64,000 nucleotides of DNA from Candidatus Berkelbacteria bacterium (GTDB lineage: Bacteria > Patescibacteriota > UBA1384 > UBA12157): assembly GCA_037127955.1 (NCBI GenBank), contig JBAXXI010000001.1:73217-137216 (forward strand). The letters run 5' to 3'. The position numbers and the translations under genes are program-made. Below, one piece after another: positions 3,758 to 64,000 of the stretch (within the stretch, counting starts at the first letter, position 1; each line of letters opens with the position of its first letter). The notes under the pieces are model-generated. The model was not told the origin of the DNA. It did no database searches and saw nothing but the letters and a program-made list of their open reading frames with translations.

Positions 3758-4921
3758 CTATTTTTTCTTGGCTTTAGCCTTGGTTTTAGTGGCCTTTTTT
3801 TCAGATTTTTCTTCTGATTCATTTTCGGCTTCAGCCACCACCGCTTTTTTCTCTGATTTTCCGTTAGGATTATTCATCGACAAATTTAATTTGTGTAATT
3901 CTGGCTCAATTGAAACGATATAAAAATCGTATTCTGAACCGACTTCAACCACTTTGGAAGCGTCTTTTTCACCCATTTCAGAAATATGAACTAAACCGTC
4001 TAAACCATCGAAACTAACAAAAGCACCAAACGGAGTGATACGGGTAATTTTACCCTTAACTTTGTCGCCGTTTTTATATTTGGTCACACTACCAACCCAA
4101 GGATCTTCAATCAAACGCTTAATTGAAAGTGACAAACGATTATTTTCAGTTGAAATAACCTGAACTTTAACCTTTTGACCAACCTTAAACATATCTCTTA
4201 AGTTTTCAACATGTTCCCAAGCGACTTCAGAAATATGGACCAAACCTTCAACTTCACCCATATTGATAAACAAACCAAAATCAACGATACCGGTAATTTC
4301 ACCGTCTAAAATATCGCCGATTTGATAATTTCGAATTTTTTCTTGTTGCACGACATCGCCAGCGGCTTTTTCTGAGAAAATCAATTTGCCAGCATTTGGC
4401 TCAAAAGAAATGATTTTAACCTGGAAAGTCTGATTGAGTAATTGGCGAAGTTTGCCCAAAATCTCTTCTTTATCACCTGAAGAAACTTTCGGGTAATGTG
4501 AAGAAGCCAATTGTGAAACTGGCAAAAAGCCTTCGTATTCACCAAAAGCACAGAGCAAACCACCGCGGTTAGCTTCGTGACACTTAACTGGCAAAACGCC
4601 ACCAGAAGTAAACTTTTCTTCCAAAATTTTGGTAACTCGTTCTTTATCGGCTCGTTTAAGCGACAAAATACAGTAACCATCAGCATTTTCTAAAACTAAA
4701 ACATAAGCCAGGATTTTATCACCAGGTTTCATCGAAGCCATTTCTGGCGACATTTCTTTTTCTGGAATATAACCCAAGCAAAAACCAGCCACGTCAACTA
4801 AAACGCGAGTTTTACTGATTTCCATTACTTTAACTTCGACTACGTCTCCTTGTTTAAACGGAACTAATTTGTTAGCGTAGTCAGCCACCAAATCTTTCAT
4901 TGATTGCGGTTCTTTTGACAT
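3758..4921 (-). CDS. rpsA: 30S ribosomal protein S1 (short form, four S1 domains, Lys-rich C-terminal tail)
   Basis: Repeated S1-domain pattern (GxV.G.V..I...G.FV) and a KKATKTKAKAKKK tail. Confidence 0.7.
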   Translation of the reverse strand: MSKEPQSMKDLVADYANKLVPFKQGDVVEVKVMEISKTRVLVDVAGFCLGYIPEKEMSPEMASMKPGDKILAYVLVLENADGYCILSLKRADKERVTKILEEKFTSGGVLPVKCHEANRGGLLCAFGEYEGFLPVSQLASSHYPKVSSGDKEEILGKLRQLLNQTFQVKIISFEPNAGKLIFSEKAAGDVVQQEKIRNYQIGDILDGEITGIVDFGLFINMGEVEGLVHISEVAWEHVENLRDMFKVGQKVKVQVISTENNRLSLSIKRLIEDPWVGSVTKYKNGDKVKGKITRITPFGAFVSFDGLDGLVHISEMGEKDASKVVEVGSEYDFYIVSIEPELHKLNLSMNNPNGKSEKKAVVAEAENESEEKSEKKATKTKAKAKKK

Positions 4922-16607: not shown

Positions 16608-16637
16608 AAATATAAAATTTATATTCTAATTATATTT

Positions 16638-16655
16638 CGGAATACTGAAATTCCG
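16638..16655 (-). promoter_or_regulatory. leader hairpin motif A (CGGAATTTCAGTATTCCG on the minus strand) between a GGTATAGT -10-like element (16673-16680) and tRNA-Leu(UAG)
   Basis: Identical 18-mer to 38356-38373 after reverse-complementing. Same position relative to a GGTATAnT box. Confidence 0.5.
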
Positions 16656-16697
16656 CGTTAATCTATAGATTAACTATACCTTATTTTCAACGATTAA

Positions 16698-17135
16698 TCA
16701 ATTCCCTATCGTGATTAAATCCTTAATTTTCTCAAAACTCACATCGCCGATGCCTTTGATATTTTTAATATCTTCAATCGTTTTAAAGCCGCTATTCTTT
16801 TCGCGATAGCTAATAATGTCGCCAGCGCGCACTGGACCAACGCCTGGCAGCTTATCGAGCTCAGCTAAACTCGCCGTATTAATATTGATTTTATCACCCT
16901 GATTTTGGGTCGATGACTGAACAACTTCCGAGCTTGCCTTGGCCGATAATTCTTGGCGGAGTTTTTCGTTTTCGGTTTTAAGGCCAGCCACCATTTTCTT
17001 GTCGCGCACTACTTCTTTTTGTATATAATCACCAAAAATCACTAGACCTGTGCCCGCTAAAATAATAAATACTAAAACCGCGCCAATATAATACCTGTAT
17101 TTAAAAATAAATTCATCAAAACTATTTTTCATCAT
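16698..17135 (-). CDS. comEA: competence protein ComEA (helix-hairpin-helix DNA-binding)
   Basis: N-terminal TM helix. C-terminal tandem HhH: ININTASLAELDKLPGVGPVRAGDIISYRE...IKGIGDVSFEKI. Confidence 0.8.
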   Translation of the reverse strand: MMKNSFDEFIFKYRYYIGAVLVFIILAGTGLVIFGDYIQKEVVRDKKMVAGLKTENEKLRQELSAKASSEVVQSSTQNQGDKININTASLAELDKLPGVGPVRAGDIISYREKNSGFKTIEDIKNIKGIGDVSFEKIKDLITIGN

Positions 17136-23136: not shown

Positions 23137-24217
23137 AATCTTCTTTCAAATTTTTATATAATTTTTCGTAACCGTCAACCATTTTTTCTACAGTAAAATT
23201 TTCTTCGGCATATTTTCGAGTTGATTTTCTTAATTCTTGATACGCTTCATCGGTCATTTGATTTAGTTCTTTTATCTTGTCACAGAAAGCTTCAGGATCA
23301 CCACTTTCCACTAAAAAACCATTTACTCCATCCTTAATAATCTCGCGCATACCTTCACTATCAAAAGCAATTACCGGAGTACCACAAGCATTAGCTTCGG
23401 CCACCACTAAACCCGCAACGCCGCCAGTTGGCTTCATTATTCGTGGATTAATAAAAAATTTTGACCTACCAATAAGCTCATTTTTTTGAGCTAAATCTTG
23501 TGGACCTAAAAAAATTAAATTTTGATTATTTTCTATTTCTGATTTCAGGTTTTCCTGATAGAACTTTGATTCTTCACCGCCGCCACCAAACTTAATTTTC
23601 TTCTGAGTTAATTTTTGAATTTCTGGAAAAAACTCCAAACCTTTATTTGCGACCAATCTGCCGACCCACGACAAATAATCTTCTGCATTTTCTTGATACT
23701 TATAGTCACGAACATCAATACCATGACCAGCCACAAAACTATTTTTAATTTTCGGAAAACTATTAATTTGTGAATTTTGCGCGAAAACTATATTTGTTTC
23801 TGGATATTTTTTAAATAAATATTCAACTTCTTCGTCTGATATTTCTTTATTATGAAGTGTGATACAATGAGGAATTTTTAAAAATTTAATCATAGGCAAA
23901 AATAACCACCATTCTGCCACACTAATATGAACGAAATCAAACTCTGTCTGTCTATCCAAAAAATCCGTAAATTGCACTAAATGCATTGTCATTGCTCTGC
24001 GGACTAAAGAATATGGTTTTGGCGCAAAACAAAAGAAATTGCTCTCAAAATCACCTTCGATCGAACAATTAACTTGACTGTCTTTAGTCGCAAATAAGGT
24101 TACATCATGTCCGCGAACCGATAGTTCATTCACTAAGTTTGCCGTAAAAACTTCTGTCCCACCCAGCGCATTAGTTGAAATTTTTTGCGCTAAAACGCCG
24201 ATCACTGCTATTTTCAT
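23120..24217 (-). CDS. family 4 (GT-B) glycosyltransferase
   Basis: C-terminal E-x7-E-like region: AEANACGTPVIAFDSEGMREIIKDGVNGFLVE. Confidence 0.8.
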   Translation of the reverse strand: MKIAVIGVLAQKISTNALGGTEVFTANLVNELSVRGHDVTLFATKDSQVNCSIEGDFESNFFCFAPKPYSLVRRAMTMHLVQFTDFLDRQTEFDFVHISVAEWWLFLPMIKFLKIPHCITLHNKEISDEEVEYLFKKYPETNIVFAQNSQINSFPKIKNSFVAGHGIDVRDYKYQENAEDYLSWVGRLVANKGLEFFPEIQKLTQKKIKFGGGGEESKFYQENLKSEIENNQNLIFLGPQDLAQKNELIGRSKFFINPRIMKPTGGVAGLVVAEANACGTPVIAFDSEGMREIIKDGVNGFLVESGDPEAFCDKIKELNQMTDEAYQELRKSTRKYAEENFTVEKMVDGYEKLYKNLKEDFDAKD

Positions 24218-27806: not shown

Positions 27807-27882
27807 AGTGCACCTCCATAATTTTTATACAAAATTCCGCGACAAGCGGAAGCTTGGCTATATTTTGACGTAATTTAGGCAT
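27799..27882 (-). CDS. leader mini-ORF (27 aa, MPKLRQNIAKLPLVAEFCIKIMEVHFA) whose N-terminus mimics the downstream galT-like protein and whose stop overlaps its TTG start
   Basis: SD AGGAGGG then ATG. First 8 codons encode MPKLRQNI, as in the downstream gene, using different synonymous codons. Contains palindromic motif B (GCCAAGCTTCCGCTTGTCGCGGAATTT). Confidence 0.4.
   Translation of the reverse strand: MPKLRQNIAKLPLVAEFCIKIMEVHFA
27832..27864 (-). promoter_or_regulatory. palindromic motif B copy 1 (minus strand GCCAAGCTTCCGCTTGTCGCGGAATTT) in the galT leader
   Basis: Inverted repeat TTCCGC/GCGGAA with a 5-nt spacer. Near-identical copies at 46215-46244 and 46325-46354. Confidence 0.6.
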
Positions 27883-40330: not shown

Positions 40331-40344
40331 AGAATAAATTCTAT

Positions 40345-40367
40345 GCGGAATTTCAGCATGCGGAAAT
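40345..40367 (+). promoter_or_regulatory. motif A variant GCGGAATTTCAGCATGCGGAAAT in the eno leader. A further CGCGGAATTTTTCAAAG copy sits at 40413-40434 next to the palindrome TTTTCAAAgTTTTGAAAA
   Basis: Shares the CGGAATTTCAG core with the copies at 16638 and 38356. Confidence 0.45.
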
Positions 40368-40394
40368 ATGGCCAACAATATTACATTATATTAA

Positions 40395-41756
<1,362 letters not shown>

Positions 41757-43327: not shown

Positions 43328-43900
43328 TTGACTGGAAAAACTCACCAAATTTTTGGTATCGGTGTTGGCCTGGCTATATTTTTAAATCTAGCCGAACCAA
43401 CCTACTCACCTGCCACCTTGGCCGCGGTTTTAGTATTTTCATCTTTAGGTTCACTTTTACCAGATCTAGATAAAGCCTCAGCTGAATTTTGGCATAGTTT
43501 TCCCGTTGTCGGTCACAGTGCTGGCAAAATTGTTGATCCATTTATTTCTCACCGAAATATTACTCATTCTGTTATCGGCACTGCCTTGGCCGCCGCTTTA
43601 TTTTACTTTATACTCGAATCTTTCCCAGATTATTGGGGTGTCAATACCACTGTTGTCTTTATCGTATCTGTTGCCAGCTATTTAAGCCATTTATTAGCCG
43701 ACAGTTTTACAGTCGAAGGCATCCCACTTTTTTGGCCAGCCAAATGGAAATTCGGCATTCCTCCCAAACCGTTCGATGGCTTAAGAATTGTAACAGGAAA
43801 GTGGTTTGAAAATTTAATCATTTTCCCAATTATTAATATTACCCTGCTCTTACTAGTTATAAATTCCTGGCCGACTATCAAAATTATTTTGTTCAAATAA
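43328..43900 (+). CDS. membrane-bound metal-dependent hydrolase, YdjM/DUF457-like
   Basis: Polytopic membrane protein with a conserved His pattern. TTG start. Confidence 0.45.
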   Translation: MTGKTHQIFGIGVGLAIFLNLAEPTYSPATLAAVLVFSSLGSLLPDLDKASAEFWHSFPVVGHSAGKIVDPFISHRNITHSVIGTALAAALFYFILESFPDYWGVNTTVVFIVSVASYLSHLLADSFTVEGIPLFWPAKWKFGIPPKPFDGLRIVTGKWFENLIIFPIINITLLLLVINSWPTIKIILFK

Positions 43901-43945
43901 TAATAAGTATATAATAAAAACAAGCAATAAATATTAGGAGGTCAC

Positions 43946-44305
43946 ATGATTATTGGAATTATCGTTCGTTGGGTTTTAAACGCCTTGGTCTTATTCGGCA
44001 TCTCTTATATCGTTCCTGGTGTATATTTTGCTAATTTTTACGCCGCACTTATTTTAGTCGTAGTTTTAGGTATAATTAATGCAATCATTAAACCGATTTT
44101 GGTTTTCTTTACTTTGCCAATAAATATTCTAACTCTCGGGCTTTTTACTTTAGTTATTAACGGCTTACTCTTCTTATTAGCTTCAACTATTGTCAAAGGC
44201 TTTGTGGTTACTGGTTTCTGGCCAGCCTTCTTTGCCTCATTAGTATTTTCTTTGGTTTCAACCTTACTTTCCTGGCTCGATCAAAGTTTACAAAAAGAAG
44301 TTTAA
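43946..44305 (+). CDS. DUF360 / phage-holin-family-4-like membrane protein
   Basis: Four TM helices. SD AGGAGGTCACATG. Confidence 0.5.
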   Translation: MIIGIIVRWVLNALVLFGISYIVPGVYFANFYAALILVVVLGIINAIIKPILVFFTLPINILTLGLFTLVINGLLFLLASTIVKGFVVTGFWPAFFASLVFSLVSTLLSWLDQSLQKEV

Positions 44306-44323
44306 ATTTATTTGTAGGAATAT

Positions 44324-44352
44324 AAAAATACCGCATAACGCGGTATTTTTTT
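44324..44352. terminator. bidirectional rho-independent terminator
   Basis: AAAAATACCGCataaGCGGTATTTTTTT. Confidence 0.7.
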
Positions 44353-44353
44353 A

Positions 44354-44488
44354 TACTAATATTATTGTTTAAGAATCTCCATATTTCCAAATACTGAAAT
44401 TCCGCGAGATTTTAAAACTATTGTTTCAAGATCTCCATACTGCTTCGCGACTCGAGATATTAAAGCTATTGTTTTAATATCTCCATAA
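44354..44488 (-). repeat. three tandem diverged copies (about 45-57 nt) of the lepA 3' end (TATGGAGATATTAAAACAATAG and variants), with a degenerate motif A copy (44387-44408) between copies
   Basis: Minus strand: lepA ends ...TTTATGGAGATATTAAAACAATAG, then ...GTATGGAGATCTTGAAACAATAG... and ...ATATGGAGATTCTTAAACAATAA downstream. Confidence 0.7.
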
Positions 44489-46202
44489 AAACGGAATCAG
44501 GGATTTCAAGACGACCCAACTGCTTCATTTTCTTTTTACCAGCCGCCTGCTTTTTCAAAAGTTTATTTTTACGAGTAATATCTCCGCCATAAAGTTTGGC
44601 AATAACATCTTTTTTCATGGCTGAAATATCTTCACGCGCCAAAATTTTACCAGGCTTACCATCAGTGCTATTCATAGCAATTTGAATCATGACCTCAAAC
44701 ATTTGTTTTGGAATCAAATCTTTAAGTTTTAAGGCCAAGGCTTTAGCCTGCGTTTGTACCTGAAAAGCGGGGACAATCTTATTAAATTCATCAATTTGCT
44801 GACTAGCCACAAAAACATCAAGTTTAACTAAATCACCAACTTTCCAGCCAATCAATTCGTAATTTTGCGACGCATACCCTTGAGTAGCCGATTTTAGTTT
44901 ATCGTAAAAATCAATGATAATTTCGGCTAACGGAGCCTCATACTTAATCACCGCCCGATCGCCAAAAAAGTTAGTTGTCTCGTAAACACCTCTTTTCATT
45001 TGAGCGAGTTCCATCACCTGGCCCAAGTATTCTTTTGGCGTAATGATTTCCATTTTAACCCAAGGTTCTTCGTAACGAGGCCTGCCTTCATCATGATTAA
45101 TTCGATATTCAACCGAAGGTTGGGTGACAATTAAATCTAAATTATTCTCGCGCTCCAAACGCTCTTTTACGATCTCTAAATGCAACAATCCCAAGAATCC
45201 ACAACGAAAACCATGACCAAAACTCTGTGAATTTTCAGGTTCATAAATCAAACTTGAATCATTTAATTTTAATTTTTCAAGCGCCGAACGAAGGTGATTA
45301 GGTTCTCCTCCCTGAAGAAAAAATGACGCATAGACCATTGGTTGCGGTTTTTTGTAACCCTCGATAGGGGAGACACCAATAGGGGAATTAAGAGTGACTG
45401 TGTCACCAACTTGAACATCAGCCAAATTTTTAGCGCCCGTCACAATATAGCCGATCTCCCCTGCCTCCAACGAAACTTTCGGCGCATATTTAAGCTTAAA
45501 CTCGCCTACTTCAACGGCCTCGGCGTTTTTATTAGCGGCCATAAATTTAATGCCCACGCCCTTACCCACTTTGCCATCCATCACTCTAATATAAGCAATG
45601 ACCCCACGGTAAGCATCATAAATCGAGTCAAAAATCATAGCCCGAAGCGGAGCCTCTATATCGCCTTTCGGTGCGGGAACTTGTTCAATCACTTTATCTA
45701 AAATTTCCAAAACCCCCTGGCCAGTTTTAGCCGAAACTCTTAAAATATCTTCGTCAAAAACACCGAGTAAATCTTGAATTTCCTCGCTCACCTCTTCGAT
45801 CATAGCATTTGGTAAATCAATTTTATTAATCACTGGTACAATTTTTAGGCCAGCTTTTTGGGCGTGCTCTAAATTAGCCAAAGTTTGGGCTTGAATGCCT
45901 TTCGTCGCATCCACCACCAAAATTGCCCCTTCAACAGCGGCCAAAGATCTTGAAACTTCATAGGCAAAATCAACATGTCCTGGCGTATCGATCAAGTTCA
46001 AGCTGTAACCTTTATAATCCATACGCACTGGCTGAAGTTTGATCGTAATACCGCGCTCACGCTCCAAATCCATGGTGTCGAGCATCTGCGGCTTACTATC
46101 GCGCACTTCAACCGTATGAGTTAACTCCAGCATACGATCAGCTAAAGTTGATTTACCGTGATCAATATGGGCTATAATTACAAAGTTCCTTATTTTATCC
46201 AT
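44466..46202 (-). CDS. lepA: elongation factor 4 (LepA)
   Basis: MDKIRNFVIIAHIDHGKSTLADR (G1 motif) and a LepA C-terminal domain. Start at 46202, preceded by AAAGGAG. Confidence 0.9.
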   Translation of the reverse strand: MDKIRNFVIIAHIDHGKSTLADRMLELTHTVEVRDSKPQMLDTMDLERERGITIKLQPVRMDYKGYSLNLIDTPGHVDFAYEVSRSLAAVEGAILVVDATKGIQAQTLANLEHAQKAGLKIVPVINKIDLPNAMIEEVSEEIQDLLGVFDEDILRVSAKTGQGVLEILDKVIEQVPAPKGDIEAPLRAMIFDSIYDAYRGVIAYIRVMDGKVGKGVGIKFMAANKNAEAVEVGEFKLKYAPKVSLEAGEIGYIVTGAKNLADVQVGDTVTLNSPIGVSPIEGYKKPQPMVYASFFLQGGEPNHLRSALEKLKLNDSSLIYEPENSQSFGHGFRCGFLGLLHLEIVKERLERENNLDLIVTQPSVEYRINHDEGRPRYEEPWVKMEIITPKEYLGQVMELAQMKRGVYETTNFFGDRAVIKYEAPLAEIIIDFYDKLKSATQGYASQNYELIGWKVGDLVKLDVFVASQQIDEFNKIVPAFQVQTQAKALALKLKDLIPKQMFEVMIQIAMNSTDGKPGKILAREDISAMKKDVIAKLYGGDITRKNKLLKKQAAGKKKMKQLGRLEIPDSVFMEILKQ

Positions 46203-46281
46203 GTATCTCCTTTGTAATTTCCGCGACAAACGGAAGTTTGGCCATAATTACGAAATTACGAATATTTGTTTGATTATCCAT
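46195..46281 (-). CDS. leader mini-ORF U2 (28 aa, MDNQTNIRNFVIMAKLPFVAEITKEIHG) mimicking the lepA N-terminus. Its stop overlaps the lepA ATG (CATGGATAA)
   Basis: The N-terminus MD..IRNFVI(M/I)A parallels lepA MDKIRNFVIIA with synonymous codon differences (CGT/AGG, AAT/AAC, TTC/TTT). Contains motif B (GCCAAACTTCCGTTTGTCGCGGAAATT). Confidence 0.4.
   Translation of the reverse strand: MDNQTNIRNFVIMAKLPFVAEITKEIHG
46215..46244 (-). promoter_or_regulatory. palindromic motif B copy 2
   Basis: Minus strand GGCCAAACTTCCGTTTGTCGCGGAAATT. Confidence 0.6.
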
Positions 46282-46354
46282 GTTGTTCCCCTGTTTCTAT
46301 GAAAACAAATTGATGTAATTTCGTAATTTCCGCGCAAATCCGAAGATTTGCCAT
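46274..46354 (-). CDS. leader mini-ORF U3 (26 aa, MANLRICAEITKLHQFVFIETGEQHG) containing the motif B variant. Its stop overlaps the U2 ATG
   Basis: ATGGCAAATCTTCGGATTTGCGCGGAAATTAC parallels the internal ATGGCCAAACTTCCGTTTGTCGCGGAAATTAC of U2. Confidence 0.3.
   Translation of the reverse strand: MANLRICAEITKLHQFVFIETGEQHG
46325..46354 (-). promoter_or_regulatory. palindromic motif B copy 3 (variant)
   Basis: Minus strand GGCAAATCTTCGGATTTGCGCGGAAATT. Confidence 0.5.
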
Positions 46355-46380
46355 TATTACAAAATTCATTGAGTTATTCA

Positions 46381-47775
46381 TTAGCGATGTTTCTCCATTT
46401 CTTTCAAAGCATCTTCTCTTGTATTAATTTTTCCATCCAGATAAGCTTGCTCTAAATAACTTTTAATTTGACCAACTTCTGGCCCTGCTTCAATCTTAAG
46501 TATTTTCATAATATCTTCGCCAGTGACCAAATCGAATTTTTTTACTTGATTTTTTTCTTCTTCACTGGTCTCGGCCTCAAATTTGGCGCGCAGCGCCAAT
46601 GCGTCTTGGTACATTTTCATATCTGGCTCATGATTCGGTCGAAGACTAGCCGACAAATCCGCTTTGGTCAAATCTAGAAGCAACTCAATATTTGGATCTA
46701 CAAAAAGCTTTTTTTGTTTGCGCTCACTCATACCAGTAAAAGCATGAACAATCCGCATGTGTTGACGGATCGCCCAACAAACTCTACTGATAAAATGACG
46801 CGAAAATTTAAAACGTTCCAGGATTTCTTCAGCTTGTTTAGCTGACTGAATATCATGATCAAAAAAAGTAATACTAGTTTTATTTTTTTCGGCCCTAAAA
46901 CCAATCGTTTCTGGTTTGGCAATATCATGAAGTAAAACTGTCCATACTAACTCCTCTGAGAGAGTTTCACCAATATTAATTAAAGCCAAAAGCACATGCG
47001 TCCAGACATCACCTTCAGCGTGAAATTCTTTTGGTTGTGGTACATTTTTCATTTTTGCCAGTTCTGGCGAAATTTCATCTAGCAAACCCAACTCATCAAG
47101 CATCTCAATAGCCAAATGTCTATTTTTTAATAATAACATTTTGCTAAATTCTTCACGAATTCTTTCAATAGAAATTTGCCCAATATTACTCGCTAATCGT
47201 TTGATCGCGATTTTAGATTCTTTTTCAAACATAAAACCGAAACGAATCGCAAATCTAACCGCTCTAAGCATACGCAAATAATCTTCGTTAATGCGATCAT
47301 CGGCATTTCCGATAAATCGAATATATTTTCTTTTAATATCTGTCAGTCCGTCAATATAGTCAATAATCTCAGATTTAATTGGATTGTAAAACATACCATT
47401 GATTGTAAAATCACGGCGTTGAGCATCTTTTAAGCTCGATGAAAACTTTACAGACTCAGGATGACGATGGTCACCCACTCCAACATCTTCACGAAAAGTC
47501 GCTACTTCAAATTCATGATTATCGATCTTAACCGCCACCACTCCAAATGATTTGCCGCGATCCTCAGCCATAGGAAAAATCTTTTTGATTTCTTCTGGAT
47601 GAGCAGCAGTGGCAATATCAATATCATGGGTCTCAACTCCTAAAATCATATCTCGAACAGCACCACCAGCAATATATGTTTCAAACCCCGCTTCTTGCAA
47701 GGTTTTCACCACATCAAAAGCCGCCGATTCTTCATCGGTCAAAGGACGTTCAATTTTAAAATTTATCTTTTCCAC
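46381..47775 (-). CDS. cca: CCA-adding tRNA nucleotidyltransferase / poly(A) polymerase family protein with HD domain
   Basis: Pol-beta-like head GGAVRDMILGVETHDIDIAT and a C-terminal HD domain pattern (HD...H). Confidence 0.8.
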   Translation of the reverse strand: MEKINFKIERPLTDEESAAFDVVKTLQEAGFETYIAGGAVRDMILGVETHDIDIATAAHPEEIKKIFPMAEDRGKSFGVVAVKIDNHEFEVATFREDVGVGDHRHPESVKFSSSLKDAQRRDFTINGMFYNPIKSEIIDYIDGLTDIKRKYIRFIGNADDRINEDYLRMLRAVRFAIRFGFMFEKESKIAIKRLASNIGQISIERIREEFSKMLLLKNRHLAIEMLDELGLLDEISPELAKMKNVPQPKEFHAEGDVWTHVLLALINIGETLSEELVWTVLLHDIAKPETIGFRAEKNKTSITFFDHDIQSAKQAEEILERFKFSRHFISRVCWAIRQHMRIVHAFTGMSERKQKKLFVDPNIELLLDLTKADLSASLRPNHEPDMKMYQDALALRAKFEAETSEEEKNQVKKFDLVTGEDIMKILKIEAGPEVGQIKSYLEQAYLDGKINTREDALKEMEKHR

Positions 47776-58037: not shown

Positions 58038-61000
58038 TTAATTTATCTTTTTCATCTTGATATTGACTGAAACCAAGGTCTTTTCCTTCTCAAGATACAT
58101 AATATGAGACTTGAAATCAGTATATTCTGGTTTGGTGGCAGTCAAGTAATAAATACCAGGATTAACCAAGAACTTAAACCGACCATCGATATCAGTTACA
58201 TCTGTTTCGACTAATCTATTTGTACGTTTTTCGTAAATTCTCACGATCGTAGTCTCAAGTGGTCGACCAAAAATATCAGTAACAACACCATATGGTCTGG
58301 CTCGTTTGGTTCTTAAATATTCCCAAATCGCAATCAAAATATAAAATATTAAGGAGAAAATATAGAAAATATTAATCGAAATAATCATCAAAACAATGGC
58401 AAACATTATACCTAGAACCAACAAGACGATTCTAACAGTATTTAAAATTCGGTTAAGCTTGATGGTAAAGACTAACAATTTATAACTAAAAGATAATTTA
58501 GTTTGAGCATCCATTGGCACATTAATAGTGACCGTTTTATCCTTACTATCAATCTCTAAGACTTCACCAGTATAAACCGAATCGAAGAAACCACTAACTT
58601 TCATAACTGACGGGAAAGTATAACCATTTTTTTGAACTGTTAAATAGTATTTGCCTGTTCTGACCAAGAAGCCAAATCTACCTTCACCATCGGAAACCGC
58701 AGTTTCAAGTAAACGATTATATTCTTTATCAAAAATCTTAATCAAAGCATAAGGAATGGCTTGACCGGTTTGTGAATTAAAGACCGTACCCCATGGCTTT
58801 CGTCGTTTACGAATGCCCAAAAATTGGAACAAATGACTCAAAAGATAAAGAAGTTGTGGCCAAATATTGGCAGTCGCTAAAACAGCGTTTAGAACAATTG
58901 GTGCGGCCAATAAAGAACTGGTTGTAACAATAACAGCGTTGGAAACACTCTTAGCTTCTGGAGTTAAACCTTCGGTACTAATATTAGCAAACAAACTATT
59001 AATCTGATCTTGGGTTTTTTGCAAAGTACTAGTAACACCATTGCCAATAACTTTGATCTGTACATTTTGTTGAATCTGCCCGTCAGTCACAGTTAGCTTC
59101 TGGTCACCCACAGTATTTAGAGTAAAATCTGAGCCGTCGAACGAGTGTGTACCAGTATCAGACGCACTAAAGGTGTACTTATGATCACTATTCCAAATTA
59201 ATTCGGCTTTTTTATCAGAAGATGTAAAGTAAATTTCGCCTAGATAAGATTGAATTCTGGCGCCACCATTGTCAACCGCGCTCACTTTAACCTTATCGTT
59301 AAAAGTCTGACCAGCATTAATTTTATCTGGAGTATTATCAAGTACAAGATAAGCTTGAACCGCTAAGGCATCGCCTTTTTTGGTTGAAACATTCAAAATA
59401 CTAGATTTCAAAGAAGTATTACCGGCTGCGTCATAAGCTTTAATATAGAAATTATAAACAGTTTCTGGAGTCAATTGAGTCAAATCAAAATCAGTATTTG
59501 AAGTTGTACCGATCATGACATCAGTATCGGCATTGAATATTTTATAACCGGTTACACCGACATTATCGGTCGAAGCATCCCAGGCCAAACTAATCTCAGT
59601 CGATTTGATAACGGTAGCTCGAAGATTGGTCGGCGCAGTTGGCCCTTCATTATCCGTAACGTTCGTCGGCGTCAAAGCTAATTGTTCGGTTCCACTGGAG
59701 ATATGACCAAGTGAATCAATCGCTTTTAAGGTATAATAATAAGTCACGCCATTGGTCAAATTGGAATCAGTATAAGATGTTCCGGTTTGACCCGTAGCTA
59801 ATTTTACCCCTTGAACTGTTTTTTCAAGTGAACGATAAATGTCGATCGATTTGAAATATGTTGACGAAGGATTGGTCCAAGTCAATTCGACCTGACCATT
59901 ACCAGCTACTCCAGAAAAGTTAATCGGATTATCAATTGAGGCTGGGTAAGTTCCAAATGTCACTTCAATAGTGTGATTGGCCGTAATTGAGCTAAAGGTA
60001 TAAGTTTCAAGATCATATTTTGAAACGCCATCAACCTGAACATTCCTAATAAAGTAACCAGAATTGGCACTAATCGTAAAGGTTTTATTTGAAAGCGCAT
60101 CCACTATTATCGAACCACTTGGTGTAATACTACCTCCGTTACCTGACGAAGCAGTAATAGTATAAGTCGTAACAGCAATGGTCGCAGCGATCGTGTGATC
60201 AGTAGTGACATTGCTAAAAGTATAAGTAGCCAAAGCCCCAACCGAGACACCATCAATCTTCAAGTCTTCAATATAATAACCGGCATCAGGAGTGATAGTG
60301 TAGATCTGGCTCGAACCATCATCAACCAAAGTCGAACCAGATGGCGAGACTGTACCGTGGGCATTAATCGTGGCCGTAATGGTATGGCTTGTTCCAGTAG
60401 GAGTAACCGGATTTGCGCTAAAACTAGCCGAAATTGTATGATTCGTGGTTACAGTGGTAAAGGTATAATTACTGACCGAACCAACTGAAACACTATCAAC
60501 CAAAACATCTTCAATATGATAACCAGATGAAGGCAAAATCGTATAAGCCTGGTTTGAACCATAATTAACTGTTGTCGCACCGTCCGGATCAATCGAACCA
60601 TGCGAACCAGCTAAAGCCGTTATTGTTTTTGTATCAACTATAAATGTTGCTGAAATAGTATGAGAAGTAGTAACGTTGTTAAAAGTATAAGTTGTCACAG
60701 AACCGACCGAGACACCGTCAACTAATACATCCAAAACGTGGAAATTATCATTGGCCGTAATAGTGTAGGCTCGATTTGAACCATAATTAATCGCCGTAAC
60801 ACCGGTTGGTGAAATCGAACCATTAGTGCCAGCCGAAGCTGTAATATTATTAGTATCGATGGCGAAAGTCGCAGACACTGTTAAATTAGAGGTAATATTT
60901 GAATCGGTACGAGCTTCCGTTAAAACTCCATCAGACCAAGAAACAAAATGATAATGAGCACTTGGCACGGCCGTAACCTGAGAACCGTTACCTCCATAAT

Positions 61001-64000
61001 TAACGGTTTGTGGGGTGGTACCCGTGATCGAACCGTTTGAACCAGCATTATAGGTCAGAGTGTAAGTATTGATCGCAAAAGTCGCCGTTACAGTGATATT
61101 ATCTGTTACATTAAGGTCTGTTCTGGCTGCCGTCATCACATTATCCGACCATTTAACAAAATGATAATTGGCTGCCGGTACAGCTGTCACTTGAGCACCA
61201 TTTGAACCATAACCAACGGTTTGAGAGGTTGTACCAGTGATTGAGCCGTTTGAACCAGCATTATAGGTCAGGGTGTAAGTGTTGATGGCAAAATCAGCAG
61301 TGACGGTGATATCGGTAGTAATATTTAAATCGGTTCGAGCGGCTGTCATCACGTTGTCAGACCACTTAACGAAGTGATAATTCGTATCAGGTATAGCTAC
61401 AACTTGCGTACCATCCCCACCAACATAAACTGTCTGGGAAGCATTGCCAGAAATAGTACCATGTGAACCAGCTGTATAAGATAAAGTGTATTGATTTTCG
61501 GCAGCAAAATTAGCCGTGACTGTAATATTACCTGTCACATTTAGATCAGTTCTGGCCGCCGTCAAAACACCATCAGACCAAGTAGTAAAATGATAATTCA
61601 AATTTGGTACAGCTGTAACTTGTGTGCCGTTTGCACCATAATTGACGGTTTGTGGGGTAATACCTGTAATCGAACCATTCGCACCAGCTGAGTAAGTTAA
61701 GGTATAAGTATTAACAGCAAAAGTGGCGGTCACAGTTATGTCAGCTGTAATATCTAAATCAGTACGAGCGGCGGTCATGACATCGTCTGACCATTTAACA
61801 AAATGATAATTTGTATTTGGCGTAGCAATAACTTCACTACCGTTTGCACCATAACCAACAGTTTGAGGAGTTATGCCGACAATCGTACCGTTAGAATCAT
61901 GATTGTAAGTTAAGGTGTAAGTATTAATAGCGAAGGTCGCGGTGACTGTAATATCATTTGACACACTAGAATCAGTACGAGCCGCCGTCATCACATTATC
62001 TGACCACTTAACAAAATGGTAATTAGAATCTGGAACAGCCGTAACCTGAGAACCACTACCTCCGTAATTGACAGTCTGAGGAGTAGTACCAGTAATTGAA
62101 CCATGCGAACCAGCCGAGTAAGTTAAGGTATAAGAATTTATAGCAAATGTAGCACTAACTGTTAAATCAGAAGTAATGTTTTGATCAATACGGGCCGCGG
62201 TCATCACGTCGTCTGACCATTTAACAAAATGATAGTTGTCATCAGGAACAGCCAGGACTTGGCCACCGTTAGCACCATAATTGACGGTTTGAGGTGTTAC
62301 ACCAGACACAGAACCATGAGAACCAGCATTGTAAGTTAGAGTGTAAGTATCAATGGCAAAGGTCGCCGTTACGGTTACATCAGCCGTGATATTCGAATCA
62401 GTACGAGCAGCCGTTAAAACGCCATCAGACCAAGAAACAAAATGATAGTGAGCACTTGGCACGGCCGTAACCTGAGAACCGTTACCTCCATAATTGACGG
62501 TTTGTGGGGTAATACCTGTAATCGAACCATTCGCACCAGCAGAATAAGTCAAAGTATAAGTATCAATGGCAAAAGTGGCGGTGACCGAAATATTAGCTGT
62601 GATGTTTGAATCTGTTCTAGCCGCCGTCATGACATCGTCCGACCATTTAACAAAATGGTAATTGGCCGCCGGAACCGCTGTTACCTGCGTACCGCTAGCA
62701 CCATAATTGACAGTTTGTGGGGTAGTACCAGTGATCGAACCGTTTGCACCAGCAGAGTAAGTCAAAGTGTAAGTATCGATGGCAAAGGTTGCAGTGACTG
62801 TAATATTATCCGTCACATTCAAATCAGTACGAGCTGCCGTCATGATGTCGTCTGACCATTTGACAAAATGATAATGAGCGCTCGGTACGGCTGTAACTTG
62901 AGTACCATTTGCGCCATAATTAATGGTTTGAGGATTGGTACCAGTAACCGAGCCATTGCCATCGTTGTTATAAGTCAAAGTATAAGTATTAATCGCGAAA
63001 GTCGCCGTTACCGTAATATTAGCTGTAACGTTAAGATCAGTACGAGCCGCCGTTAAGACATTATCAGACCAAGAAACAAAATGATAATGAGCCGACGGAA
63101 CCGCTGTCACCTGTGTACCATTTGCGCCATAATTAATGGTTTGAGGATTGGTACCAGTAACCGAGCCATTGCCATCGTTGTTATAAGTCAAAGTATAAGT
63201 ATTAATCGCGAAAGTCGCCGTTACCGTAATATTAGCTGTAACGTTAAGATCAGTACGAGCCGCCGTTAAGACATTATCAGACCAAGAAACAAAATGATAA
63301 TGAGCCGACGGAACCGCTGTCACCTGTGTACTATTTGCGCCATAATTAATTGTTTGCGGCGTAGTGCCCGTAATTGAACCATTTGAACCGGCATTATAGG
63401 TTAAAGTGTATGTATCGATGGCAAATGTCGCCGTTACCGTAATATCAGCTGTAATATTTGAATCGGTACGAGCGGCTGTCAGTACGCCATCAGACCAGGA
63501 AACAAAATGATAATGAGAGTTTGGCACGGCGGTTACTTGAGTACCGTTTGTACCATAATCAACAGTCTGAGGGGTGGTACCAGTAATTGAACCATTTAAG
63601 CTAGCATTATAAGTCAAAGTGTAGGTATTAATCGCAAAGGTCGCAGTGACAGTCAAATTAGCTGTGATATTTTGATCAATACGGGCCGCCGTCATCACGT
63701 CGTCTGACCACTTAACAAAGTGGTAATTGGCGTCTGGCACAGCTAAAACTTGGCCACCATTAGCACCATAATTGACGGTTTGAGGTGTTACACCAGAGAC
63801 CGAACCATGAGAACCAGCATTGTAAGTTAGAGTATAAGTGTCGATCGCAAAAGTAGCCGTTACCGTAATATTGGCCGTAACATTAAGATCAGTACGAGCG
63901 GCAGTCATGACATCGTCTGACCATTTAACAAAATGGTAATGAGAGTTTGGTACGGCGGTGACTTGCGTACCGTTTGCGCCATAATCAACAGTCTGAGGGG
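58038..64000 (-). CDS. giant cell-surface protein (over 1956 aa; 5' end beyond window). At least 14 tandem 71-aa Listeria/Bacteroides-type repeats (TYTLTY...YHFVSWSD...), then divergent Ig-like repeats, two FN3 domains, two carboxypeptidase-regulatory-like domains and C-terminal TM segments
   Basis: Repeat consensus TYTLTYNAGSNGSITGTTPQTVNYGANGTQVTAVPSAHYHFVSWSDGVLTAARTDLNVTANITVTATFAIN. The FN3 hallmark is LTWTNP...YYYTLKAID. The reading frame continues open to the window end. Confidence 0.8.
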   Translation of the reverse strand, partial: PQTVDYGANGTQVTAVPNSHYHFVKWSDDVMTAARTDLNVTANITVTATFAIDTYTLTYNAGSHGSVSGVTPQTVNYGANGGQVLAVPDANYHFVKWSDDVMTAARIDQNITANLTVTATFAINTYTLTYNASLNGSITGTTPQTVDYGTNGTQVTAVPNSHYHFVSWSDGVLTAARTDSNITADITVTATFAIDTYTLTYNAGSNGSITGTTPQTINYGANSTQVTAVPSAHYHFVSWSDNVLTAARTDLNVTANITVTATFAINTYTLTYNNDGNGSVTGTNPQTINYGANGTQVTAVPSAHYHFVSWSDNVLTAARTDLNVTANITVTATFAINTYTLTYNNDGNGSVTGTNPQTINYGANGTQVTAVPSAHYHFVKWSDDIMTAARTDLNVTDNITVTATFAIDTYTLTYSAGANGSITGTTPQTVNYGASGTQVTAVPAANYHFVKWSDDVMTAARTDSNITANISVTATFAIDTYTLTYSAGANGSITGITPQTVNYGGNGSQVTAVPSAHYHFVSWSDGVLTAARTDSNITADVTVTATFAIDTYTLTYNAGSHGSVSGVTPQTVNYGANGGQVLAVPDDNYHFVKWSDDVMTAARIDQNITSDLTVSATFAINSYTLTYSAGSHGSITGTTPQTVNYGGSGSQVTAVPDSNYHFVKWSDNVMTAARTDSSVSNDITVTATFAINTYTLTYNHDSNGTIVGITPQTVGYGANGSEVIATPNTNYHFVKWSDDVMTAARTDLDITADITVTATFAVNTYTLTYSAGANGSITGITPQTVNYGANGTQVTAVPNLNYHFTTWSDGVLTAARTDLNVTGNITVTANFAAENQYTLSYTAGSHGTISGNASQTVYVGGDGTQVVAIPDTNYHFVKWSDNVMTAARTDLNITTDITVTADFAINTYTLTYNAGSNGSITGTTSQTVGYGSNGAQVTAVPAANYHFVKWSDNVMTAARTDLNVTDNITVTATFAINTYTLTYNAGSNGSITGTTPQTVNYGGNGSQVTAVPSAHYHFVSWSDGVLTEARTDSNITSNLTVSATFAIDTNNITASAGTNGSISPTGVTAINYGSNRAYTITANDNFHVLDVLVDGVSVGSVTTYTFNNVTTSHTISATFIVDTKTITALAGSHGSIDPDGATTVNYGSNQAYTILPSSGYHIEDVLVDSVSVGSVSNYTFTTVTTNHTISASFSANPVTPTGTSHTITATINAHGTVSPSGSTLVDDGSSQIYTITPDAGYYIEDLKIDGVSVGALATYTFSNVTTDHTIAATIAVTTYTITASSGNGGSITPSGSIIVDALSNKTFTISANSGYFIRNVQVDGVSKYDLETYTFSSITANHTIEVTFGTYPASIDNPINFSGVAGNGQVELTWTNPSSTYFKSIDIYRSLEKTVQGVKLATGQTGTSYTDSNLTNGVTYYYTLKAIDSLGHISSGTEQLALTPTNVTDNEGPTAPTNLRATVIKSTEISLAWDASTDNVGVTGYKIFNADTDVMIGTTSNTDFDLTQLTPETVYNFYIKAYDAAGNTSLKSSILNVSTKKGDALAVQAYLVLDNTPDKINAGQTFNDKVKVSAVDNGGARIQSYLGEIYFTSSDKKAELIWNSDHKYTFSASDTGTHSFDGSDFTLNTVGDQKLTVTDGQIQQNVQIKVIGNGVTSTLQKTQDQINSLFANISTEGLTPEAKSVSNAVIVTTSSLLAAPIVLNAVLATANIWPQLLYLLSHLFQFLGIRKRRKPWGTVFNSQTGQAIPYALIKIFDKEYNRLLETAVSDGEGRFGFLVRTGKYYLTVQKNGYTFPSVMKVSGFFDSVYTGEVLEIDSKDKTVTINVPMDAQTKLSFSYKLLVFTIKLNRILNTVRIVLLVLGIMFAIVLMIISINIFYIFSLIFYILIAIWEYLRTKRARPYGVVTDIFGRPLETTIVRIYEKRTNRLVETDVTDIDGRFKFLVNPGIYYLTATKPEYTDFKSHIMYLEKEKTLVSVNIKMKKIN
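60650..64000 (-). repeat. tandem 213-bp coding repeats inside the giant surface protein gene (some adjacent units identical, e.g. about 62940-63366)
   Basis: Identical translated mini-ORFs in the six-frame track at 62868 and 63081 (offset 213 bp), and a visibly periodic DNA sequence. Confidence 0.8.

Follow-up and report, generated by a model that had tools for sequence, protein, structure and literature searches.

How does a gene for an essential translation factor come to carry further copies of its own last codons beyond its stop codon, and what are these copies? The question is raised by lepA (elongation factor 4, EF4) in a 64-kb stretch of a Berkelbacteria genome (candidate phyla radiation, CPR; Patescibacteria), which was scanned over its full length and is called the window here. 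On the minus strand (46202..44466) the gene ends ...GATTCCGTTTTT ATG GAG ATA TTA AAA CAA TAG. The region beyond this stop is a strain-variable, polar stack of lepA-end copies, each forming part of a compensated hairpin, with palindromic modules of a dispersed family between them. A mirror-image architecture is present at the 5′ end of lepA and at a galT-like gene. We tentatively read the stack as the product of repeated renewal of the lepA terminus.

The sequence ATGGAGATNYTNAAACAATAR has exactly three matches in the window, all on the minus strand (44486-44466, 44438-44418 and 44382-44362), compared with 0.01 expected by chance in a dinucleotide-preserving shuffle. That the lepA 3′ end recurs twice after the stop had been claimed in a first-pass annotation of this stretch, and the claim holds. 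A repeat search places the three copies in register with start-to-start spacings of 48 and 56 nt, and each copy's stop is separated from the next ATG by 27-35 nt. All three encode Met-Glu-Ile-Leu-Lys-Gln-stop, and their differences (ATA/ATC/ATT, TTA/TTG/CTT, TAG/TAG/TAA) are synonymous throughout. An inverted arm comes after copy 1 and another after copy 2, giving in each case a hairpin with the stop codon within or next to the loop; GAGATATTAAA pairs with TTTAATATCTC in copy 1 and GAGATCTTGAAA with TTTTAAAATCTC in copy 2. The hairpin of copy 1 is perfect and that of copy 2 contains one C-A mismatch and one G-U pair. Copy, arm and spacer form a repeat unit of ~50 nt (Table 1), and the folding z-score of the window array is -5.0. 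Tandem Repeats Finder (TRF) does not report the lepA 3′ array as a tandem repeat. A TRF repeat at 23735-23797 that resembles GTAATTTTCGG is unrelated and lies inside a glycosyltransferase open reading frame (ORF).

The array is real and not an assembly artefact, because independent assemblies and samples hold it in identical form. An ENA contig (L011) has the same sequence as the window over 7.7 kb, array included, and the Logan assembly of a different run (L040, SRR7053536) has the same array. Relatives of the array are seen in further samples (L030, L043, L046, L016, L024).

Ten extra copies from the window, L030, L043, L016 and L024 were compared with the real lepA end of the same locus. 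They lie 2-8 nt from it and all keep MEILK[Q/R] and the stop; if the observed differences are placed at random on the real end, peptide and stop are kept with P = 1.6e-2 to <5e-5 per copy. This preservation holds across three independent lineages. Among nine distinct 21-mers that encode MEILKQ and stop, the only variable columns are codon third positions and the first position of Leu. The pairing is kept as well. An alignment of eight units contains a 13-bp helix with 94% of its cells paired, in which four pairs are changed on both sides (GC/AU; UA/AU/CG; AU/GC; AU/GC), all of them involving third codon positions. None of 500 shuffles is as good and every slid register collapses. Since the changes are silent only and compensated pair by pair, the variation in the array bears the mark of coding and hairpin constraints together.

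Alignment with the lepA loci of relatives, proposed as a check in the first-pass annotation, finds related arrays whose copy number and unit order vary between strains. About 25 related loci were examined, all picked via LepA, so the sampling is biased to the lepA locus. Within the 90% LepA cluster the number of extra 3′ copies is 0 (L041, L042), 2 (window, L043) or 4 (L030). The LepA of L030 is 97% identical to that of the window over its C-terminal 200 residues, and its true end is followed by four more MEILKQ-stop copies, with perfect 13-bp hairpins in three units, a different CGCGGAAWTT palindrome after each and a folding z-score of -10.6. More distant relatives, with LepA 61-78% identical to that of the window, have their own copies that match their own C-termini. 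L016 (71%) ends in MEILKR and has one copy, ATGGAGATCCTGAAGCGTTAA, which encodes MEILKR-stop and has its own arm. L024 (61%) has a 29-codon copy that ends in KKMKQLGKVEIPDKVFMEILKR and stop; its last six codons and stop differ from the real end everywhere but in the ATG, and all of these differences are silent. The copies of L016 and L024 end in Arg, as do their own LepA proteins. In L046 (78%) the real end is followed by spacer S_a and an outer copy, ATAAAAATTTTAAAGCGATAG, that has lost the ATG and Glu and kept the hairpin, and in L021 the copy of the lepA end is truncated. No lepA-end copies are found at ~15 further related loci.

Each unit type is the true lepA end in some strain. Unit 3 of the window equals unit 4 of L030 (21/21 nt), unit 3 of L043 equals unit 2 of L030 (21/21 nt), and the real end of the window resembles unit 3 of L030. 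Unit 2 of the window has a 5′ arm as in the real end of L030, and its inverted arm and spacer equal those of L030 unit 2 (33/35 nt), so this unit is chimeric. The outermost copy is the ancestral lepA end, with new units arising on the gene side, because the tail after the last L030 copy (TAATATCAAGATACAAAAAAATGCC...) and the window tail (TATTAGTATAAAAAAATACC...) resemble the tail after the single end of the array-less L042 (TAATATCAATACATAAAAAAAATCC...), and because the outer copy of L046 with its arm matches the real end of L016 at 29/32 nt.

Other features of the lepA 3′ flank were noted in the window and in relatives. Between lepA and the convergent holin-family gene, L041, L043 and L045 contain 2-3 extra genes, of unknown function or annotated as aminotransferase. 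Gene content downstream of lepA varies among close strains, and the 3′ flank is therefore a structural-variation hotspot. In the window, S_a together with the start of copy 2 (GAAGCAGTATGGAGATCTTGAAA; 44439-44453) is 78% identical to lepA codons ~40 nt upstream (GAAGCAGTTGGGTCGTCTTGAAA; 44504-44526); S_a may be what is left of a longer lepA end that was displaced, or the resemblance may be due to chance. In L002 (CP011213, the complete Berkelbacteria genome GW2011_GWE1_39_12; 4723-4760), a small Cys-rich gene right after lepA starts with ATGGAAATTATAAAACTT (MEIIKL..), which closely resembles the lepA end ATGGAAATATTAAAGCAA (MEILKQ-stop). This start may be a coincidence or a co-opted lepA-end copy.

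The first-pass annotation also held that duplicates of the lepA termini border the gene on both sides, with CGGAA-type palindromes among them. This is borne out, and the 5′ units it described are real. Two nested upstream open reading frames (uORFs) precede lepA in the window. L041, L042 and L043 start lepA precisely at the position of the outer uORF, with MNNIRNFVIIAH, and the start of the inner uORF (MDNQTNIRNFVI...) serves L044 and L012 as the real LepA start. After ...NFVI, each 5′ copy runs into a module ATGGCCAAAC-TTCC-GTTTGTC-GCGGAAATTAC..., then a Shine-Dalgarno (SD) sequence, then the next ATG; the modules upstream of lepA have the layout ATGGCCAAxC-hairpin-GCGGAAATTAC. The stop of each uORF overlaps with the start that follows (ATGGATAA), 4 nt past its ATG. 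The module tail after GCGG is an exact 10-14 nt complement of codons ~7-11 of the following start and co-varies with it across strains (ACGAAA/TTTCGT, ACAAAA/TTTTGT, ACAAAG/CTTTGT). Displaced and real lepA starts have silent differences (ATT/ATA, CGT/AGG, AAT/AAC, TTC/TTT), the 5′ copies of L031 have codon-family switches (Ser TCT/AGC, Arg CGC/AGA), and the outer uORF of the window has non-synonymous changes (I-R to S-M).

Close strains have 0, 1 or 2 lepA 5′ units. The repeats that enclose one of these modules in L013 have kept 17 identical nt, the mark of a fresh duplication event. The idea that a small element inserts and excises and duplicates 20-50 bp of its target, put forward in the first-pass annotation, agrees with this gain and loss between close strains and with the L013 duplication. 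It does not hold as a simple target duplication, and the duplicated length is not fixed.

The window contains one more gene with a duplicated terminus. Among 61 ORFs, a scan for terminus mimics at the peptide level finds only lepA (both ends) and a galT-like gene (5′ end), and the controls give three chance 6-of-7 matches. The galT-like gene (HIT/GalP_UDP_transf; 27807-27880, minus strand) has a uORF MPKLRQNI, then the module GCCAAGCTTCCGCTTGTCGCGGAATTT, then the real start (TTG) PKLRQNIITG. Its first 8 codons are copied (ATG CCT AAA TTA CGT CAA AAT ATA for the copy, TTG CCT AAA CTT AGA CAA AAT ATT for the real start), all differences between the codons are silent (TTA/CTT, CGT/AGA, ATA/ATT), and the module is of the same E type as at lepA.

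The motif CGCGGAAWTT occurs at 8 sites in the window, compared with 0.6 expected. Six of the 8 fall within leaders or trailers, two of them in the lepA 5′ region and one each in the lepA 3′ array, upstream of tRNA-Leu(UAG) and in the leaders of enolase and the galT-like gene. Modules nearly identical to spacer S_b are found at ~16630-16657 (upstream of tRNA-Leu), at ~40345-40370 (enolase leader), in L030 and in L044, and the S_b module is identical at 28/28 positions upstream of the window tRNA-Leu and upstream of a holin-family gene in L044. The CGCGGAATTT element between copies 2 and 3 of the lepA end had been taken for a degenerate copy of a promoter-leader hairpin. The element is present, but it is an S-type module (CGCGGAAWTT plus a palindrome) that recurs at tRNA-Leu and in the enolase leader. 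The promoter label is unsupported by the sigma-70 consensus, as a scan for sigma-70 promoters and terminators finds sites no commoner than in shuffled sequence. The terminator that the same annotation placed after the array is there as a terminator-like hairpin and T run, although the consensus scan does not list it among its sites.

Several other roles for the modules were rejected. CGCGGAAWTT is missing from most intergenic regions and so is not a general promoter. A DNA-uptake sequence does not fit, since the core CGCGGAAWT with one mismatch has 37 matches compared with 35.5 expected and is not enriched. A sponge for CsrA does not fit either, because the 5′ modules contain AUGGCC and not GGA. 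A GCGGAA match at ~11570 is inside tRNA-Leu(CAG) and is due to chance. A scan of viral contigs for the S_b module returned no matches, and an Rfam scan of 43900-46700 at a permissive E-value returned nothing near a gathering threshold (best 22.6 bits, threshold 50).

Two of the loci with modules have further structure. Upstream of tRNA-Leu(UAG) (16608-16700, minus strand) there is a palindrome, TTAATCTATAGATTAA, then CGCGGAATTTCAGTATTCCGAAATATAAT, and the stop region of the preceding gene (TGATTAATC) recurs weakly as TAGTTAATC. The enolase leader (40340-40440, plus strand) contains three serial GCGGAA modules, one S_b-like, one a GCCAACA...TGTTGGC hairpin and the third an S_c palindrome (AATTTTTCAAAGTTTTGAAAAAT). 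An extended -10-like sequence, TGGTATAAT, precedes them, and the leader also has a mini-ORF, MANNITLY-stop. A different GC-rich palindrome (..GCAGTGCGTC[AG]TATGCGGG..) is found between the real and the displaced terminus in L024 (3816-3970) and L034 (~1860-1990), whose LepA is 61-64% identical to that of the window. The displaced terminus is the 29-codon 3′ copy in L024 and a 16-codon 5′ copy in L034, so the association of palindromes with terminus copies extends beyond the GCGGAA family. Elsewhere in the window, a 1956-aa ORF (58038-63908, minus strand) contains >14 tandem 213-nt (71-aa) repeats with 72-73% identity (repeats at 60892-64000) and probably encodes a large repetitive surface protein.

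Table 1. Features of the lepA locus in window coordinates.
Feature	Coordinates	Strand	Remarks
Holin-family gene	43946-44305	+	convergent to lepA
Terminator-like GC-stem hairpin, then T run	44320..44354		15-nt arms, 93% complementary; common to lepA and the convergent holin-family gene
Unit 3 copy, outermost	44362..44382	-	ATG GAG ATT CTT AAA CAA TAA = MEILKQ-stop; without inverted arm; on ancestral tail and terminator
Spacer S_b (GCGGAATTTCAGTATTTGGAAAT)	44383..44405	-	CGCGGAAWTT palindromic module; hairpin 2 immediately before next ATG
CGCGGAATTTCAGTATTTGG element	44406-44387	-	between copies 2 and 3
Inverted arm, unit 2 (TTTTAAAATCTC)	44406..44417	-	arm and next spacer match L030 unit 2 at 33/35 nt
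Unit 2 copy	44418..44438	-	ATG GAG ATC TTG AAA CAA TAG = MEILKQ-stop; displaced; by chance in lepA frame
Spacer S_a (GAGTCGCGAAGCAGT)	44439..44453	-	also in arrays of L043 and L046
Inverted arm, unit 1 (CTTTAATATCTC)	44454..44465	-	11 bp pairing with GAGATATTAAA; stop codon in loop
Unit 1 copy, true lepA end	44466..44486	-	ATG GAG ATA TTA AAA CAA TAG = MEILKQ-stop; 5′ arm and loop of hairpin 1
lepA (EF4) coding sequence	44466..46202	-	translation MDKIRNFVIIAHIDHGKS ... PDSVFMEILKQ-stop; Pfam GTP_EFTU/EFG_C/LepA_C; homologues named elongation factor 4
5′ unit 1, inner uORF MDNQTNIRNFVI + MAKLPFVAEITKEIHG-stop	46195..46281	-	former lepA start, then E-type module ATGGCCAAAC-TTCC-GTTTGTC-GCGGAAATTAC
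5′ unit 2, outermost uORF MNNSMNFVI + MANLRICAEIT...-stop	46274..46381	-	ancestral lepA start position; abuts stop of CCA-adding-enzyme gene; called as 35-aa ORF

The explanation that we favour, with a probability of roughly 45%, is serial renewal of the lepA terminus through insertion of palindromic modules and recombination between strains. A palindromic GCGGAA module would have lodged in the terminal lepA codons together with a duplication of those codons, leaving LepA intact. Out-of-register recombination, within or between diverged strains that occur together, would then expand, contract and reshuffle the array and swap the unit that serves as the real end. The peptide would be preserved because each copy had been shaped as a true lepA end under both the coding and the hairpin constraint. 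Displaced copies would survive as hairpins and decay slowly, the hairpin being still constrained or repaired by templating. New units would join on the gene-body side, with the oldest end outermost, beside the terminator on the ancestral flank. The anatomy of the array, its polymorphism and polarity, the compensated variation that keeps the coding, the common module family and the like architecture at the lepA 5′ end and the galT-like gene are observed directly. We infer the origin by insertion and duplication, recombination as the engine, and any role of the hairpins, plausibly that of stable stem-loops at either end of the lepA mRNA.

Several points weigh against this explanation. The duplicated length varies (21-26 nt in the clade of the window, ~42 nt in L034, ~90 nt in L024), which makes a single transposition chemistry, such as a single staggered cut, unlikely; the first event may instead have been illegitimate recombination at palindromes. 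Recombination between the 21-nt repeats is read from mosaicism alone, and each of the relatives was chosen through lepA. The hairpin loops vary only as CAR/TAR, which the hairpin constraint alone does not account for. The units are far better conserved across strains than the synonymous sites of lepA. Third-position divergence in lepA is 39% for the window and L030, 32% for the window and L043, 52% for the window and L046, and 55% for L046 and L016, whereas orthologous array units differ by just 0/21, 2/35, 4/33, 5/48 and 3/32 nt. Plain relics would not show such conservation; purifying selection (that is, a function) or recent horizontal spread is needed, so the units are constrained or recently spread and are not freely drifting debris.

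A broader proposal goes further, and we regard it as possible though doubtful: Berkelbacteria may contain tiny non-autonomous modules of a kind not yet described, built as ATGG-hairpin-CGCGGAAWTT-palindrome, that lodge among the opening or closing codons of genes and restore the terminus that they interrupt. On the 5′ side the modules would supply a new SD-ATG and duplicated codons. On the 3′ side they would supply duplicated codons and a stop, capped by a templated inverted arm, and essential genes like lepA would survive. Repeated events and exchange between strains would build nested stacks in which the history of the gene's termini is preserved, and the hairpin caps could be co-opted as message-end structures.

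The conservation of the units is also what keeps alive an unlikely alternative in which the array is mainly a selected RNA or DNA device rather than a relic. Tandem hairpins in the 3′ untranslated region, formed by the terminal codons and the GCGGAA palindromes, and uORF-hairpin modules at the 5′ end would stabilise the message, couple translation or bind a protein, with copy number tuning the effect. Units and spacers that are 90-100% identical where lepA third positions differ by 39-55%, perfectly compensated stems with very strong folding (z = -10.6 in L030), the identity of S_b at unrelated loci of two genomes, the co-varying complement between the 5′ tail and the next start, and the fixed geometry of uORF stops over that start all speak for such a device. 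However, most close and distant relatives have an intact lepA and no array, unit order and copy number are unstable, no Rfam family matches 43900-46700, and we know of no trans factor. Selection on structure alone would also leave the synonymous-only variation of the stems unexplained. Replacement of gene ends by homology-facilitated illegitimate recombination, with no mobile element, is rather improbable. An incoming diverged lepA would anchor in the gene body and leave the resident terminal codons behind, and the palindromes would be donor flank or break-prone sites. The displaced copies do look like true termini of other lineages: the 29-codon copy of L024 (QAKGKKKMKQLGKVEIPDKVFMEILKR, then stop) has many synonymous differences from the real end and only a few amino-acid changes, which are conservative, the 16-codon 5′ copy of L034 is of the NFCIVSH type known from other clades, and copies are separated by Ser TCT/AGC and Arg CGN/AGR codon-family switches. 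The remnants are variable in length, and the window combines an L044-like leader with a gene body in the L043 cluster. Yet one short module with a constant left end (ATGGCCAARC...GCGGAAWTT) is found at the junctions of two unrelated genes and at lepA junctions of lineages whose LepA is 71-100% identical to that of the window. In addition, the junctions of the 3′ arrays are always at the ATG of MEILKQ, the L013 duplication is in situ with identical repeats, and end replacement gives no reason to expect a matching inverted arm for every copy. Whole-cassette replacement with paired 5′ and 3′ scars is a misfit as well, as L043 has only 3′ copies and L044 and L013 have only 5′ units.

Accretion of attachment (att) sites, like that of a cis-mobilizable element (CIME), has little to recommend it overall, even though element-borne att sites would look like gene-end copies with synonymous differences. 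An integrase-type element that targets the lepA 3′ end with its own copy of the terminal codons would leave tandem att remnants by serial integration and decay. The hairpins have a lox/dif-like layout (11-13 bp inverted arms around a 4-8 bp centre), and extra genes do lie downstream of lepA in L041, L043 and L045. But just 27-35 nt, without cargo or integrase, separate the copies, and the islands of L041, L043 and L045 lack a second, distal lepA-end copy. The arms co-vary where recombinase half-sites should be conserved, and gene 5′ ends are affected too, with regeneration of SD-ATG. We give still less credence to translated mini-genes, in which reinitiation after the lepA stop would make fMet-Glu-Ile-Leu-Lys-Gln and the peptide or the act of translating would be the function. 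ATG, frame and stop are kept in most copies with an identical peptide, and the distance from stop to ATG fits reinitiation; against this, the real lepA start has AAAGGAG and the copies have no SD sequence, their ATG abuts a 13-bp hairpin over codons 2-6, and most relatives have no copies. The displaced copies are most likely not translated. Four points suggest that they are not maintained as ORFs: the outer copy of L046 has no ATG and Glu and still keeps its hairpin, the L021 copy is truncated, the outer uORF of the window has changed its amino acids, and the ATG lies against a 13-bp stem with no SD sequence. Hairpin-stimulated slippage, which the first-pass annotation had offered as its alternative, is the least credible and is rejected, together with a drifted neutral target-site duplication and an assembly artefact. 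The array is tandem with a period of ~50 nt, contains palindromes and is polymorphic in copy number, which speaks for slippage, but the copies are neither identical nor randomly diverged; 2-8 nt apart, they keep peptide and stop, their arms are compensated, unit types are common to several strains and are real ends elsewhere, and independent assemblies and samples show identical arrays.

If serial renewal of the lepA terminus is true, it would let small repeats insert into coding termini in a self-healing manner, and it would make an essential translation-factor gene of CPR bacteria subject to fast structural variation driven by recombination. To our knowledge, almost nothing is known of mobile DNA and gene regulation in this group. 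The variation in copy number between strains points to an undescribed small-repeat remodelling of gene ends without gene breakage. The stacks yield short ORFs and uORFs that gene callers annotate, such as the 35-aa ORF upstream of lepA, and can mislead the prediction of starts and stops. They could also be used as strain-resolving markers, and the compensated terminal-codon hairpins make a hypothesis of mRNA-end structure in CPR bacteria directly testable.

A literature search under the term Berkelbacteria found no description of nested gene-terminus stacks, which is no proof of absence. The array differs from several classes of known repeats. It is not a clustered regularly interspaced short palindromic repeats (CRISPR) array, as its 'repeats' differ from each other and its 'spacers' are mutually related, and it is not a simple slippage tandem repeat, as its differences are exclusively synonymous or compensated. 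On reading, the units show no RYYYAAC ... GTTRRRY boxes of an integron attC site (IntI was not searched for). Coupling by uORFs and leader peptides and the bypass in T4 gene 60 share with the lepA locus a stop in a hairpin, short ORFs that overlap the next start and gaps of ~50 nt. Unlike in gene 60, coding is not resumed; each lepA copy is closed by a stop, beyond which no ORF runs on. Unlike leader peptides, the 3′ copies lie after lepA, with nothing left to regulate before the terminator.

Integrative elements that duplicate att sites in tRNA, tmRNA or fda genes, including CIMEs, also produce direct repeats of gene 3′ ends with silent differences, tandem stacking and a displaced native end in the distal position. 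The lepA units differ in being ~50 nt long without integrase or cargo, in occurring at 5′ ends too and in having arms that co-vary with the copies. Tandem inversion duplications and quasipalindrome template switching in Salmonella and E. coli give the same direct-inverted-direct layout, perfect palindromes and remodelling by deletion. Those products are young, identical and unstable, whereas the lepA copies are silently diverged, shared between strains and always accompanied by the GCGGAA linker.

Repetitive extragenic palindromic (REP) sequences, bacterial interspersed mosaic elements (BIMEs), miniature inverted-repeat transposable elements (MITEs, for example Correia elements) and Rickettsia palindromic elements (RPEs) are short dispersed non-coding palindromes, and RPEs are found even inside coding regions. 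The Berkelbacteria modules resemble them in being short, multi-copy and palindromic, in sitting at gene boundaries, sometimes in tandem, and in varying between strains. They have no 5′ GT[AG]G (GTAG) box of REP and BIME sequences, and their palindromes vary in sequence. Clear terminal inverted repeats as in MITEs are not seen: there are none at the 3′ spacer boundaries, and the 10-14 nt inverted repeat of the 5′ units, which ties the module tail to codons of the next start, changes along with the target gene and is not specific to the element. Nor is there a target-site duplication of fixed length (21 nt at the lepA 3′ end, 23-26 nt at the lepA and galT 5′ ends, ~42 in L034, ~90 in L024), and the copies are non-identical in all but L013. 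In contrast to REP sequences and MITEs, the Berkelbacteria module brings a regenerated gene terminus with it, SD-ATG and codons at the 5′ end and codons, stop and inverted arm at the 3′ end, and its hairpin sequence is specific to the locus, with only the linkers ATGG and CGCGGAAWTT conserved.

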